From assembly GCA_030264375.1 (NCBI GenBank), contig JASCQW010000109.1, forward strand, positions 51,639,263-51,703,262: a stretch of 64,000 bases of DNA, written 5' to 3'. Below are positions 5,250 to 62,319 of the stretch, piece after piece. The notes under the pieces were generated by a model. It was given only the letters and a program-made list of their open reading frames with translations. It did no database searches and was not told the origin of the DNA. A program made the position numbers and the translations under genes. The stretch is from Carcharhinus longimanus. Taxonomy: Eukaryota. Every line of letters begins with the position of its first letter. The first letter of the stretch is position 1.

Positions 5250-5374
5250 CGTCTCAACTATAAAACTGACCTTATTCAGCCCCTGGAAGCTGTTTTAAAT
5301 TAATAAATAAAAGTTTACTCCCTTCTCTTAAATTTATCAGCAACAGCTAGACTGCAAAGCACTGCCATATTAAA

Positions 5375-5455
5375 TGAGGTAGAGATGCCGGCGTTGGACT
5401 GGGGTAAACACAGTAAGAAGTCTCACAACACCAGGTTAGAGTCCAACCAGTTTAT
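5375..5455. mobile_element. Penelope-like palindromic element, one arm running into a gap
   Basis: gagatgccggcgttggactggggtaaacacagtaagaagtctcacaacaccaggttagagtccaaccagtttat is nearly identical to 6652-6725. Confidence 0.75.
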
Positions 5456-5555
5456 NNNNNNNNNNNNNNNNNNNNNNNNNNNNNNNNNNNNNNNNNNNNN
5501 NNNNNNNNNNNNNNNNNNNNNNNNNNNNNNNNNNNNNNNNNNNNNNNNNNNNNNN

Positions 5556-5806
5556 TGCACCAACCACAATTCTATCCAGTCCCTATCCCTATAACCCCAT
5601 GCATTTACCCAAGCTAGCCCCCTGACACTAAGGGGCAATCTAGCAGGGCCAATCAACCTAACCCACACATCTTTGGATAAACCTGTGGGACTTTAATCTG
5701 ATGTTGTGAGACTTCTTACAGTGGGAGGAAACCAGAGCACCTGGAGGAAACCCATGCAGACATGGGGAGAATGTGCAAACCTCACACAGACTGTGACCCA
5801 AGCTGA
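5556..5806 (-). mobile_element. HE1-like V-SINE interrupted at about 5677-5720 by a piece of the Penelope-like element
   Basis: Reverse-complement V-domain split by ataaacctgtgggactttaatctgatgttgtgagacttcttac. Confidence 0.75.
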
Positions 5807-6449
5807 GATTCTTTTTTTTAAATTCATTTGTGGTACATGGACATCACTGGCTGACCAGTGTTTATTGCCCATCCTTAATTGTCCGAGAGCAGTTGCGAGT
5901 GGCTCTGGAGTGATATGTAGGCCAGAACAGGTAAAGATGGCAGATTTCCTTCCTTAAAGGACATTAGTGAACCTCTAAACAGGATTACAAATGTTTCTCA
6001 AATCATTAGTTGCACCTGTGATAAAATCGGAGATTTCTTAATTTAGTTTTCATGAAATATTTATCAGTGGAAGGACTGGGCTGTGTATCAGGTGTCATTA
6101 ACATCTTGCAGATTTATATTTCCAACACATTTCAATTTTTTTATCTGCTTTTTCAAACTATTTATTCCCACATGAATGTGTCAAAGGAATATAATTACCC
6201 TTTAAGCGTTAGAGAATATTGAAAAGATTTAACCTTTTGATTATAATTTCCAGCTTTGTGACAATTGAGTAGATTCAAACATTGAATTCAGCTACAATTA
6301 CCCATTCAAGTTTTCACCACAGGAACATCGATGAAAATGTAATTAATTTTGCAAGAAAATGTGTGCATGTGATTTGGATTTTAATAATGATTTAAGATAA
6401 AAAATCAATTTGGCAACATTTCCTCCTCAGCATAATTTTTTCTTTTTTT

Positions 6450-6645
6450 AAAAATACAAGATGTGGGCATTGCTGGCTAGACCAGCATTTATTGCCCATC
6501 CCTTGTTGCCCTCGAGAAGGTGGTGTGGAGCTGCTGCTCTGAGCCACTGCAGACCCTGAGGTGTAGGTTCATCTACAGTGCTGTTAGGGACAGAGTCCCA
6601 GGATCTTGACCCAGTGACCATGAAGGAATGCCGACATATATCCAA
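6450..6645 (-). mobile_element. LINE (CR1/L2 group) 3' end
   Basis: Reverse complement of the same tail seen at 57640-57815 and 62740-62915 (gggcaataaatgctggtctagccagcaatgcccacatc). Confidence 0.7.
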
Positions 6646-6881
6646 GATGTAGAGATGCAGATGTTGGACTGGGGTAAACACAGTAAGAAGTCTCACAACA
6701 CCAGGTTAGAGTCCAACCAGTTTATTTGATAGTAATCCCACAAGGTTTTGGAAACAGTGTTCCTTTGTCAGGTATGTGCCTTCCACAACCTGACGAAGGA
6801 ACGCTGTTTCCGAAAGCTTGTGAGATTATTTTCAAATAAACTGGTTGGACTCTAACCTGGTGTTGTGACACTTCTTACTGT
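6646..6881. mobile_element. Palindromic Penelope-like insert (arms 6680-6773 and 6788-6881)
   Basis: Two ~94 bp inverted arms around a 14-nt loop. Same family at 5375, 46466, 54263 and 61353. Confidence 0.8.
6786..6823 (+). ncRNA. Minimal type I hammerhead-ribozyme motif (Penelope-type)
   Basis: CTGACGA (6790-6796), one extra A, stem II GGAA/TTCC, GAAA (6812-6815), palindromic AGCT stem III, CUU triplet with predicted cleavage after 6819. Stem I is weak in this copy (CAAC vs GTGA). Confidence 0.55.
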
Positions 6882-7699
6882 ATTAAATGAGACCAGACAA
6901 CAAGCTACTGTACCTGCATTTACATTTCAGCCACAAGCCTGCTCAAGCTGATTGCATCAGTGGATCACCACCGTTCTACATGTCTAAATATTGGATGATT
7001 TATGTTAAAGACAGTAACCATTGCAAACAGATCATGCAGCTGTGCTCATTTTGTATAAAGAAATCCATGAAGCTCTTGGCTTTTTGCAGCATCTAGCATT
7101 TCATGGATCCCAAGAGTAGAGGATGAAAGCATGGAAAACTAATACTTGGCCCTGAAAAATCATCTACAGGGGCACTGTAGGCTTGGCAACAGAAGATCAA
7201 CCTATGTCCACTGATGCCAATATCAGTGATTTTCCAGCATCTTCTACTCTTATTTCAGCATTTGCTATTTCTTTTAGACTGCTCAGTTTTTGGCTGTTTT
7301 CACTGCAATAGCATTGCTTTCAAATGTTTGTTAACTACTTTTCATAGCAGCAAGAGGTTTTCTGCTCTTGGAGTTCTGTACAGTTGCTGTTTTCAAGCCA
7401 CATCATTGCCTGGAGACCAGAACTCGAGGAATCACCAAACACGTCTACAATCAAAATAGCAGCCAGGAGAAATCAGTCAACCAACTGATGATCCCCTAAG
7501 TATCATTGGGCGGGCAGCAGTTCCTCCTTGCTGCTGAACAGAATTGTACTGCTAACATCAAACCAGCAGTGCACGCGCATGCACACACACACACACTGAT
7601 GCCACAATCTACCCATTGTATACGTTCAACAGACACCCCCTGCATGTAACATGTAGCTATCCTTACCAAAATGCCATCCCCTGCCATTATACAAATTCT

Positions 7700-21823: not shown

Positions 21824-21854
21824 TTCGCTTCTCGGCCTTTTGGCTGAGATCAAG
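21824..21854 (+). pseudogene. U2 snRNA 5' fragment (nt 1-31) heading a chimeric repeat
   Basis: tTCGCTTCTCGGCCTTTTGGCTgAGATCAAG versus U2 ATCGCTTCTCGGCCTTTTGGCTAAGATCAAG (29/31). Similarity stops before the branch-point recognition sequence GTAGTA. Confidence 0.85.
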
Positions 21855-22923
21855 AATCAGATCAAGACCAAGGTGGGGTACAATGCCTCATCCTGTCAGC
21901 TTGGATCTTAAATGTCTCTCTTGTGGGCACCATGAATTGGGTTCAATTGGAATTTGAATTTGGCTTTTGGATCAAGGAAGGTATGGATTTTAGTTTGCCT
22001 GGTCCGCTTTGAACATTAGCTTTGTAACTTTATGAATGGAGTAAAAAACTTTCAAAAATATTTCTTTTGTAGTCACTTTCCTAATATCAGTTGGTTGCTC
22101 TGTGATTAATTATCCTTAGAAATTCAGCATTGGGCCTTCAACTTTACCATTGCTACAGTCACTCTGCCTAATGCATTCCTGTGTAATGGAAGAAAGGTAA
22201 AACCTACATTTGTACAGCACCATTCACAATATCTCAAATTGCTTTGCAGCAATTAAGTAGTTTTGAACTGTAGTCACTGGTGTTGATAATGTTATCATGT
22301 GGCAGAGTAGAGTTGAGGGGCCAAATAACTTACCCCTACTCAGAATATGTATGGTTGTATGTCATCCTGGGATGAACAAGATAAACTGAGCTAGGTGGCC
22401 TTTGATGAGAGGATGAAGTCATGGCTGGAGTTTTATTTATTTTGTTGTCAATGCAAATGTACTGTGAGCAGACTCTGGGGAGTCGCATTGCTAGGACGGG
22501 AGTGCATGAAAGACTCACAGTACATCAGTAGCCTGCTTTTCACTGAGCATTGCCCTCAGCAGTCTTTTCCATTGACTTCAATCCTGTCTTTTTGTCTACT
22601 TTATCTCTTATCCCATTCTATCTTGGTGCAATCTGAGTTTTTCTGAGGTGTTGGAACATCATGTTACAGTTGTGTTGCAGAGATTGAAAATATAGTCATA
22701 AGAAGCAACAATCAGCAGTCTTCACATCTGCCATATAAGAAAACACAACAACGTGAATCATTCAGTCTTTTTCCTCTGGCCTCTAAGGTTTGGCCACACA
22801 GAGACACCTGAGGTATCCAATGCTTCTCACTGACAGTAAAAACCATTTTGTTGCTCCGGAGTTAGTTACTCTTTCTACCCTATGAAGTTTCTGATAAAAT
22901 AATCCAGTTGTGCCCCTTGTACC

Positions 22924-44929: not shown

Positions 44930-47060
44930 TTCTCTTCGCAAGCAGTCGAGGATGACTTGCTTCCACATTAGTTCTCAGGTGACTCAGTAAACTCACCACA
45001 AATGTGCAGCTTCCAGTCTCTGTCCAAGGTGGGACAGACGGTGCTTGGATGAGTGGGTGGGTGGGGTGAACAAGTTGGCATATGCTCCTTTCACTGTCTA
45101 CGCTTGGCTTCAGGTTGCCCTTGGTGATTTAACAGCTTAACTGGTGAAACTCAAGTCATAGAATCTCTCCAGTGCAAAAAGGAGGCCATTCAGCCCATTN
45201 NNNNNNNNNNNNNNNNNNNNNNNNNNNNNNNNNNNNNNNNNNNNNNNNNNNNNNNNNNNNNNNNNNNNNNNNNNNNNNNNNNNNNNNNNNNNNNNNNNNT
45301 CTGCACTGACAGAGATTTTGTGTTTCTGGGAAGGTGGGGGGGGGGGCCCAGGTCAGGGAATCGCAGCTGTAAGTGGGGATGCTGCAGTTTTCAAAAAGGA
45401 GGCTTTGAGGGTATCCCTGAACCATTTTCCCTGTCCTCCTGTGGCTAGCTTGTGTCAAAGCTCCGTGCAGAATGCTCATTTTGGGAGTCGCGTGTCAGGC
45501 ATGAGGATGGTGTGGCCAGCCCAGCAGAGTTGTTTAAGAGTGTTTAATGCTTCAATGCCAGGGTGCTGGCGTGAAGACATGGATATTGGTGTGCCTATCC
45601 TGCCAATGGATTTGCAGGGTCTTGCCAAGATAGTGCTGGTGATACTTCTCCAGGATTCGGAGCTGCTGGTTGTACATAGTCCACATCTGAGCCATACAGG
45701 AGGGTGGGTTTCCCTACTGCACTGTAGGCCATGAGCTTGGTGCCAGGTTTGAGGTCCTGGTTTTTTCCCTTCCTCAGGAGACCAAAGGTTGTGCTGGCAC
45801 ACTGAAGATGTTGTTGAACATTGTCACTCTTGTCTGCCCTTGTTGACAGTAGGCTCTAAAACATGGAAAGCAGTCTGCCTTGTTGATTTTGATAAATGGG
45901 TGGGTGGGTGAAGTGCTATGTAGCAGGGGCATGCTGGTGGAGGACCCTTGCATTTGACCTATGCTCCTGAACATTTCAATGAAGGAGATGATGATGACTT
46001 GGAGGTTGTGTGTGTGCTGATGCAAGCATCACCTGTAGTCCAATGACAGAGGATGGAACAGCCTTGGATCTCGCCTGCAGGTGGCACAGGTTGAACAGCT
46101 TTTCTTTTTTCTGTATTTTAATTCCACTCCAGCCAGGAGCTTGATGAGGGCAAGAAAGATCGAGAAGAGCATCAGTATGATCACACAGCCTTCCTTAACC
46201 CCAGTCTGAACTTCAGTTGGGTTTGTAACAGATCTGTTGGTAGAGATCATGGCTTGCATGTCATCATGGAGTAGGTAGAGGATGGAGACAAGCTTTTGTG
46301 GGCAGTCAAAATGGGGAGGATGTTCCAAAATAACTTTGTGGTTGACACTGTCAAAGGCTTTCCTGAGCTCAAAGGCAGCCATGTACAAGGGTTGACATTG
46401 TTTTCTGCATTTGCTGTGTAGTTGCTGCTTGGTGACATGGTGACAGAGCTGCTTTTTTGCTCTCTCTCTTGTCCTACCAAATAAACCTGTTGGACTTTAA
46501 CCTGGTATTGAGACTACTTACTGTGCCTACCCCAGTCCAACGCCAGCAACTCCACATCATTCTTGCTCTCTGGTCAGGGTCCTGTTTCAGGTTGAGGCGA
46601 GCCTTGTACTTGTGGCTTATCCTTTCATGGGTCGACCGATCGTTCTTATTGAGCCAGTCTTGACGTTTCCTGGTTGAGTAACTAAGTATCTCTTTGCAGG
46701 TGCTGATTATGGAGGCCTCAAGGGCAGACAAGGTGCTGTGGACACTTTGCGTCTCTGGGATACCAGGGGTAGTCAGCTGGCAATGAGGCTTGGCAATTTT
46801 CTTGTAGCATGGTTTCTGTTGCCATCACTGCTTTGGGGCTACATTGATGTTGAGCAGAGCGGATTATACAGTTCTGGTTTTCACAGTTGGGGTTATCCAA
46901 CAGGGGTCCTCATGTTCTGGATCCAGTTGCCTGGGTGAGATTTCTTTTAAAGTGGGAACACATTGCACACCAGCTCCCACACAGGCTTGATGTAGAAAGG
47001 CCTTGTCTCAGTGGCAAGGGGTCCCAAGTTGACTGCTAACCAGGCTCTGCTGTATGGGCC
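44930..47060 (-). mobile_element. RTE-clade (BovB-like) LINE, fragmented
   Basis: Minus ORFs: FELRKAFDSVN...CPQKLVSILYLLHDDMQA...TGVKEGCVI, LKQLCWAGHTILMPDTRLPK and STRKRQDWLNKND. Confidence 0.85.
46466..46562 (+). mobile_element. Single-arm Penelope-like insert inside the RTE, with a 9-bp TSD
   Basis: ccaaataaacctgttggactttaacctgg...ccccagtccaacgccagcaactccacatca, flanked by ttgctctct at 46457-46465 and 46563-46571. Confidence 0.75.
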
Positions 47061-54262: not shown

Positions 54263-54453
54263 GTGGGCACAGAAAGAAGTCTCAACACCAGGTTAAAGCC
54301 CAACAGATTTATATGGAATCACAAGCTTTCAGAGTACTGCTTCTTTATCAGGTAAAGGAACAATGCTCCAAAATGCTCATGATTCCAAATAAACCCTTTG
54401 GACTTTAAACTGATGTTGAGACTTCTTAACGTGCCCACCCCTGGCATCTCCAA
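54263..54453. mobile_element. Palindromic Penelope-like insert, more decayed
   Basis: Inverted arms gtgggcac...atcaggt / ...gtgcccac, flanked by ctttacctgtg (54255-54265) and ctttgcctgtg (54454-54464). Confidence 0.7.
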
Positions 54454-61352: not shown

Positions 61353-61573
61353 AACCCAGTAAGAAGTCTGACAACACCAGGTTTAAGTCCAACCAATTTA
61401 CTTGATAGTAAACTCTCAAGCTTGAGGTTAAACTCTTCGCCAGGTGAATCACCTGACAGAGTTTAACCTCAAGCTTGTGAGTTTACTATCAATAAAATCG
61501 GTTGGACTTAAACCTGGTGTTGTCAGACTTCTTGCTGGGTTTACCCCAGTCCAACGCCAGTATCTCCACATCA
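61353..61573. mobile_element. Palindromic Penelope-like insert with a 10-bp TSD
   Basis: Arms 61353-61447 and 61449-61541 with a 1-nt spacer; aatgaaccca at 61349-61358 and 61576-61585. Confidence 0.8.
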
Positions 61574-62319
61574 TCAATGAACCCACACGTTTACACAATC
61601 CCTTGAGTGATTGGCACTTTTAGATCATTTGGAAACAAAATGACATGGTATACAGTAGTGGTCATTATGTCAGCAAGATTAAGTATAGGTACAACATAAT
61701 GAAGAGTCTTAGATTGTGATACATGGCATGAGGCTTTCTTTGGCATTTTGGCCAGACCGCAATGTGTTTACAGCATTGGAAAGAGATGAAATTACAGTGT
61801 GGTGACTGCATAGAAAAAAGCTTTGAAGACACATACTGCAATAAAGCTCAAGAGCTGGTTAGCAGATGTATTCCTCATTCTGAGATTGTAGCACATTGCC
61901 TGTTAGGTCAATGAGTGAGACAGCACTTCGAGAGAACCAGTGTTGGGTTAGTTCAGTTGGAAAAAAAGTGAGTGACCGGAGTGTGGGCCGGATTGGTAGA
62001 GAGTGAGGAGAGTCAAAAAAAAATGTATAAAAATCTGGCCAGGAAAGGTTGTTATTATAATGGGTGGAGCTACACAAACACAGCAGTGACAGTCATCCCA
62101 GATACAATACAAGATCGAAAGGATATTGTCAAAACTTCCACAAATTTCCCTTGTTTGAATTAGGATGCAGCTTATCTACTATCAGAATTCAACAGAGCTA
62201 TGGTTTCTTGATTCAGGTGCTTTTGAACCACACAAGCAAGCCATAAATTTTGCCTAGCAACTGGGAATGAAGGTTTACAGAGGCTGAATATGTCAAAATT
62301 AGTAAAAGAGCAAAAGAAT

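Follow-up and report, generated by a model that had tools for sequence, protein, structure and literature searches.

Head-to-head, hammerhead-bearing 3' ends of a Penelope-like retrotransposon form palindromes in Carcharhinus longimanus, probably at the site of insertion

Described Penelope-like insertions and hammerheads

Inverted pLTRs and a one-sided tail are published features of Penelope-like elements (PLEs) (PMC3846280). Insertions of Adineta vaga Pen2a and other EN+ PLEs consist of head-to-head, 5'-truncated copies with a 30-40 nt tail on one end (PMC3846280; overview in PMC8557442), and PMC3846280 also describes variable duplications, palindromes or microhomology at the junction, and occasional unrelated DNA between the pLTRs. 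The palindromes described here resemble them in these respects. They differ from the Pen2a-type insertions presented in PMC3846280 in that both copies are usually trimmed to 50-150 nt, leaving very numerous ORF-free palindromes of 90-350 bp, and in that counts are given here for the pairing of a long with a short end and for its association with the duplication. The layout is thus known, and the strict end pairing hints at how these elements integrate. No published count linking this pairing to the duplication was found in a search whose coverage excluded Repbase and most subscription journals.

The formation of the PLE tail and of inverted ends is treated as an open question in PMC8557442 and PMC11167929. 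In the in vitro system of PAc (Poseidon of Anolis; Frangieh et al. 2024, PMC11167929), two reverse transcription (RT) start sites bound the tail, both target strands are cut and extended, and uncleaved RNA is the main template. The element described here would likewise use two start sites bounding its tail; PAc belongs to the Poseidon clade, whereas this element is of the Neptune/Nematis type. As presented in PMC11167929, no difference in start site between the strands is seen for PAc, and the joining of two cDNAs is not followed.

The hammerhead found here shares with the PLE hammerheads of PMC4209133 the CUGANGA core, an extra base before G10.1, the G10.1-C11.1 pair, GAAA-NN-UH and a palindromic 15.2/16.2. 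It differs from the Schistosoma hammerheads in that report by a stem II of 4-5 rather than 7-8 pairs and a stem I of 3 rather than 4-5. Dual hammerhead motifs on opposite strands are described in Schistosoma at a spacing of 100-700 bp (PMC4209133), whereas the two motifs here lie within tens of bases. Non-LTR retrozymes (bioRxiv 10.64898/2026.07.22.740005) are, like these palindromes, protein-free, hammerhead-bearing derivatives of PLE pLTRs; they are described as head-to-tail tandem units able to form dimeric ribozymes, whereas the palindromes are head-to-head, with one motif per strand and no fixed unit. Head-to-head arrangement, rather than tandem units each with a hammerhead, was found both in the window (the whole 64,000-nucleotide stretch that was analysed) and in the sampled loci. 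The supplements of PMC4209133 and of bioRxiv 10.64898/2026.07.22.740005 may list the motif in cartilaginous fishes.

The focal palindrome and its hammerhead motif

The focal palindrome comprises the features below, with reference coordinates set so that position 0 is the C before the CUGA core.

6646..6773, minus strand: long arm, a 5'-truncated Penelope-like 3' end from just upstream of the hammerhead through the tail end
6646..6676, minus strand: tail of about 31 nt, in the long arm only
6739..6772, minus strand: dead hammerhead remnant, with G8 and G12 changed to A and the GC palindrome altered by a G-to-C change
6774..6778, no strand: head-to-head junction of the two 5'-truncated arms
6779..6884, plus strand: short arm, a second 5'-truncated 3' end that starts near -11 and has the short (tail-less) end
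6789..6822, plus strand: minimal type I hammerhead motif with intact core, stem II at 6798-6801/6808-6811

The inverted repeat, originally given as 94 bp, is real and measures 97 nt per arm (6677-6773 and 6788-6884) with 91% complementarity; its folding z-score against shuffled sequences is about -20. The long arm aligns to reference positions -1 to +126 with 89% identity. The right-arm motif (CTGACGA-A-GGAA(6 nt)TTCC-GAAA-GCTT-GTG, 6790-6822) is present as predicted: it combines CUGANGA and GAAA with the extra base before G10.1, the G10.1-C11.1 pair and a palindromic 15.2/16.2, which supports its assignment to the minimal type I hammerheads with a palindromic stem III. The left arm, as had also been proposed, holds the same motif on the minus strand; its two G-to-A changes are accompanied by the additional G-to-C change, and it lacks the core of a minimal type I hammerhead. 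Stem I departs from the TCAC/GTGA that had been claimed. It is CAC/GTG in the subfamily, where three pairs occur in 68 of 88 typed copies instead of the 4-5 expected of PLE hammerheads, and just two pairs in the focal right arm, with the predicted cut between 6819 and 6820; sister subfamilies reach 4-6 pairs. An Rfam scan returned no hammerhead family match, a blank that is uninformative because the Rfam models do not cover the minimal form, and a PDB sequence search gave no relevant match.

Both strands of the palindrome are predicted to fold into a single hairpin (-158 and -151 kcal/mol). Stem II has a predicted probability of 0.2 when the motif is folded alone and of 0.000 within the whole palindrome, and stem I is near 0 even in the isolated motif. 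Transcription of either strand yields the antisense arm before the motif, with which it is predicted to pair, and a single motif per strand cannot form a cis dimer. Given the hairpin, the stem probabilities and the lack of a cis dimer, the palindrome is likely to be silent as a ribozyme. Together with the mutated left core and the two-pair right stem I, these predictions speak against the original prediction that a ribozyme would be presented whichever strand is transcribed. The ribozyme is inherited from the parent pLTR, where it was probably under selection.

Abundance of the motif and selection on source elements

Genome-wide counts were taken over the 2.68-Gb assembly. The exact hammerhead of the subfamily has 292 matches, a 27-mer downstream of it has 3,380 and a generic minimal hammerhead has 13,395 exact matches (control 0 in each case); head-to-head cores within 30 nt of each other number 1,335 (control 1). 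The proposed abundance is therefore borne out by thousands of motif matches. Covariation in stem II, one of the checks suggested at the outset, is found across subfamilies: pairs 3 and 4 alternate between AU, GC and GU and are paired in 66 and 60 of 67 sequences, against 56.5 and 44.7 in a shuffle that ignores relatedness. Position 17 is G in just 272 of the 13,395 matches, while A, C and T are common (9, 9 and 11 of 30). The covariation and the rarity of G at position 17 point to selection acting on source elements, rather than to activity of the stumps.

The parent element

The arm consists of the pLTR and tail that make up the 3' end of a Penelope-like element with RT and GIY-YIG, of the Neptune/Nematis type. 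A Pfam GIY-YIG search yielded eight loci, none of which carries the arm, and the endonuclease protein from one of them, used as bait, gave 4,555 candidate remnants in the assembly. Among the matches listed, 7 of 22 loci (L044, L045, L048, L051, L053, L057 and L058), all from sister subfamilies, run from the ORF end through a 230-nt UTR into the hammerhead and on to the arm's terminus. The arm of the exact subfamily follows a GIY-YIG ORF end and UTR in L070, L182 and L222, and a search with the exact-subfamily UTR returned 30 loci, most of which continue into the same hammerhead and terminus. An RT lies upstream in the same ORF in L212, L215, L220 and L234, as detected by tblastn with a Pfam-typed RT-EN protein. 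The GIY-YIG domain of L212 scores 23.4 bits against a Pfam cut-off of 22.6, the RVT_1 match of L215 (E 4e-5) falls below the Pfam cut-off, and L220 is 89.7% identical to the subfamily 3' end; the broken proteins of L045, L182, L204, L050 and L220 were missed by Pfam.

The endonuclease has two cysteines between GIY and YIG and a CxxxxCxxC linker, fitting the definition of the Neptune/Nematis type in PMC8557442 (two cysteines between GIY and YIG and a CX2-5CxxC linker finger), hence the type assignment. The insertions also display the 30-40 nt tail at one end, the 5' truncation and the variable-length duplication of EN+ Penelopes. Only truncated or broken copies, rather than a full-length copy flanked by direct pLTRs, occur among the loci retrieved, and these contain no intact full-length parent ORF. 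The Penelope origin that had been proposed thus holds through the continuity of the arm with RT + GIY-YIG ORFs, and the suggested search for an autonomous PLE ending in the arm sequence recovers RT + GIY-YIG remnants that share the UTR, hammerhead and terminus, none of them intact.

A second Penelope-like family is represented by L046, L049, L050, L055, L056 and L059. The 3' end of L056 shows, by eye, a hammerhead-like core with U3 and A8 replacing C3 and G8, a covariant form described in PMC4209133. Two loci on small contigs, L038 and L054, have long open ORF stretches with an N-terminal GIY-YIG and a CxC motif (a Naiad-like order); these two, together with L031-L034 and L041, are located on small contigs rich in AT and could derive from contamination.

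Junction diversity among palindromic copies

A motif-anchored sample of 90 loci (L061-L150) was drawn from the first 100 of the 292 hammerhead matches, with three rows merged and three previously sampled palindromes and four others left out. Thirty-eight loci are inverted, 26 have no adjacent inversion and 26 are uninformative owing to an N gap upstream. Their junction points span -415 to +87, and the copies form a continuum from solo stubs through palindromes to copies that reach the ORF. In a set of 73 gap-free head-to-head insertions among loci L061-L180 and L241-L345, with total lengths of 90-643 bp, all 73 pairs of junction coordinates are distinct. The 50 centres listed from among the 1,335 head-to-head core pairs also all differ on inspection. 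The commonest junction is a 3-nt GAA/TTC homology that recurs in both orientations and in several haplotypes, and palindromes occur in every subfamily. The palindrome is therefore very probably assembled anew at each insertion rather than being a separate fixed element.

Two exceptions to this diversity were observed. One complex slipped centre is common to L003, L008 and L014, two of which share a haplotype, and may reflect a recurrent slip or rare copying of a whole palindrome. L022 and L069 have the same junction and the same haplotype.

Many junctions (among the listed centres, and in L296, L303 and L113) contain short repeats templated by arm sequence close by, resembling end-joining patches. 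The N gaps found right upstream of 26 of the 90 motif-anchored loci indicate that the assembly breaks at palindromes, which probably makes the number of inverted copies an underestimate.

Pairing of long and short ends

The 3' ends are discrete, lying near +90 (short) or +128 (long), about 35 nt apart. The two classes rest on BLAST end points, and 12 of the 73 insertions were dropped for an unclassed end. One long end is joined to one short end in 51 of the remaining 61 insertions, against 30.5 expected (p 5e-8), with four long+long and six short+short insertions. A duplication (score of at least 7) flanks 40 of the 51 long+short insertions and none of the 10 with two like ends (Fisher p 4e-6), and a shifted control gave 1 of 51. 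The duplications measure 8-18 bp, with a mode of 11-12. Solo copies have 16 short and 7 long ends, and either arm of a palindrome can be the longer one.

Haplotypes were compared in a set that mixes 27 similarity-picked with 38 motif-anchored loci. Of 27 insertions typed in full, 11 combine two different common subfamily haplotypes, one on each arm. Site +34 is discordant between arms in 15 of 47 cases against a background of 7.3%; two of the four diagnostic sites exceed this background and the other two do not. Arms of one insertion are also concordant above chance, at +63 in 37 of 45 against 22.4 expected and at all four sites with P below 0.001. Two templates are thus likely in some insertions, a conclusion that does not extend to most of them.

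Positions of the 5' stops

Among 64 gap-free arms, 27 of the 59 at risk have their 5' stop in a pile-up at -9 to -18. An independent sample of 90 loci, taken from the first 100 of the 3,380 matches to the 27-mer, shows the same in 16 of 35; its 96 arms were anchored downstream of the hammerhead, and the 72 without a gap were counted. The stop rate in this interval is 0.055-0.059 per nt, compared with 0.002-0.017 elsewhere. As solo copies show the pile-up as well, junctions alone do not account for it. Most cDNAs extend past the predicted ribozyme cut site. In the 4 nt to either side of the cut, 10 stops were counted where about 4.6 were expected (P 0.02, 117 gap-free of 151 arms), a twofold bump that is no more than a hint of a cleavage footprint.

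A spliced leader was considered for the pile-up at -14, where CAG precedes the boundary, and was ruled out because no common sequence lies upstream of the boundary. A TATA/Inr start near -5 is mismatched in spacing to the pile-up.

Proposed mechanism and alternative explanations

These observations suggest, with a probability of roughly 75%, that the palindrome consists of two 5'-truncated, hammerhead-bearing 3' ends of an RT + GIY-YIG Penelope-like retrotransposon, joined head to head at the insertion site, where both strands of a staggered cut served as primers. Double priming as the specific route is favoured somewhat less firmly. The arm is the 3' end of the element, and it occurs with two discrete ends, one of each being paired within 8-18 bp duplications. 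A dimeric RT-endonuclease would nick both strands, and each 3'-OH, helped by a few homologous bases, would prime at a start site, one of them long-tail and the other short, as for PAc in vitro (PMC11167929). Most of the resulting cDNAs pass the hammerhead cut and many halt 9-18 nt upstream of the core, which may mark the RNA 5' end or a strong stop. The two cDNA ends could then be joined through microhomology or short templated patches, and the recurrence of the GAA/TTC junction in both orientations and several haplotypes supports this explanation. It is weakened by the arm concordance, which means that one template or fold-back can explain many copies, by the focal copy, which is without a flanking duplication, and by the junction and haplotype shared between L022 and L069, which may involve some copying of whole palindromes.

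The main rival to double priming is fold-back self-priming, a type of model proposed in PMC3846280, in which the 3' end of one cDNA snaps back at a short palindrome, extends on itself and stops before the tail. The above-chance concordance of arms fits this route, as do the small palindromes (GAA/TTC, AAGCTT and stem II) at many junctions. It provides no reason, however, for the second end to coincide with the short-end site of solo copies (16 short, 7 long), and it is made unlikely by the interchangeable arm lengths, by junctions in both mirror orientations and by the 11 of 27 typed insertions with two different common haplotypes. The original prediction had described a protein-free palindromic family of about 200 bp, copied as a unit by Penelope enzymes and carrying a ribozyme on either strand. 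The 1,335 close head-to-head core pairs, the centre recurring in L003, L008 and L014, and the roughly 40 loci that look uniform and resemble the focal copy at 84-90% would suit such a family. These look-alikes were, however, picked by similarity; the unbiased samples show a continuum up to ORF-bearing copies with no fixed centre, palindromes arise in every subfamily, and on each strand the predicted hairpin would occlude the motif. Largely refuted by the diversity of junctions, a unit-copied family is left as a quite improbable account.

A DNA-transposon MITE whose inverted repeats happen to contain the motif would also be short, palindromic, abundant and flanked by duplications. The fixed interior, symmetric termini and fixed-length duplication of such a unit are contradicted by the 73 differing junctions, the asymmetric ends and the 8-18 bp range of duplications, and direct continuity with RT + GIY-YIG ORFs refutes it further, so its probability is negligible; the element had rightly been held not to be a MITE. 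From the original interpretation, the Penelope origin, hammerhead type, abundance and variable duplications are retained, and the distinct family of about 200 bp and the either-strand ribozyme are not.

Returning to insertion by double priming, the stumps could represent a genome-wide record of Penelope integration, a broader reading that we hold tentatively and at slightly below even odds. A dimer would prime at the long-tail site on one strand and at the short site on the other, often from separate RNAs; only such pairing would leave a duplication, and the cDNA ends would mark the RNA start before the hammerhead and, weakly, the ribozyme cut. From thousands of minimal insertions come a rule that can be counted, namely that a long end pairs with a short one and that the duplication goes with this pairing, and a prediction of the RNA 5' end, both testable in the existing in vitro system. 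Taken by itself, the focal locus is an unremarkable insertion in decay. Annotation should label palindromes of this kind as Penelope ends rather than as MITEs or novel ribozyme elements.

Related copies in the window and the displaced duplication

All five related copies named in the original prediction exist, and the window also holds two copies of an 11-mer at the ends of the focal region.

5373..5455, minus strand: long-tail arm of the same subfamily, interrupted by an N gap at 5456-5555
5677..5723, plus strand: 47-nt stub with the short end, from a sister subfamily, lying within a SINE-like repeat and with no duplication
46474..46561, plus strand: solo long-tail arm without the hammerhead, duplication of about 9-10 bp
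54268..54452, no strand: decayed head-to-head pair of a sister subfamily, 11-bp duplication with one mismatch
61353..61574, no strand: head-to-head pair of another subfamily, short end left and long end right, 14-bp duplication with one mismatch
6881..6891, plus strand: copy of an 11-bp duplication, overlapping the focal short end
5368..5378, plus strand: sole partner of that 11-mer in the window, overlapping the long end of the 5373-5455 arm

The copies at 5373, 5677 and 46474 end before the hammerhead, and the cores at 54268 and 61353 are damaged. Three copies carry duplications, as had been stated; the range of 9-11 bp given for them holds for two, the duplication at 61353 being 14 bp long.

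No duplication surrounds the focal palindrome (6646-6884) itself. Enclosed by the 11-bp duplication at 5368-6891 are a long arm, the N gap, a 1.1-kb stretch made up of single-copy and SINE-like DNA, and the palindrome itself. Capture of DNA between pLTRs, recombination and an assembly chimera at the gap may each account for this structure, and the insertion ending at 6884 probably has its real opposite end in the 5373-5455 arm. For the focal copy only, the two arms may stem from two insertions united by an assembly chimera or later recombination, the partner of the short arm being the 5373-5455 arm; this has close to an even chance, marginally on the lower side, and is compatible with the double-priming explanation. 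It would account for an 11-mer that links 6881 with 5368, 1.5 kb upstream across the assembly gap, and not with 6646, and for a host repeat that is interrupted at 6645 and fails to resume after 6884. The N gap inside the arm at 5376, the difference between the focal arms at one diagnostic site, and the intervening unique DNA, which is single-copy in the assembly, also favour it. Against it, rotifer Penelopes are described as capturing unrelated DNA between pLTRs inside a duplication (PMC3846280), so the 1.5-kb unit may be real. A search of the assembly for a donor copy of the intervening unique DNA found none. A local inversion between two palindromes was considered as the cause of the displaced duplication and ruled out, because both 11-mers are direct.

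Two further features of the window were observed. A 77-nt perfect inverted repeat (2140-2216 and 2740-2816) flanks an N gap and is likely an assembly artefact. The segment at 21824-22052 resembles U2 snRNA (34.9 bits, E 0.0025, below the Rfam gathering score), with a strong match only in the first 30 nt, and is likely a truncated pseudogene.
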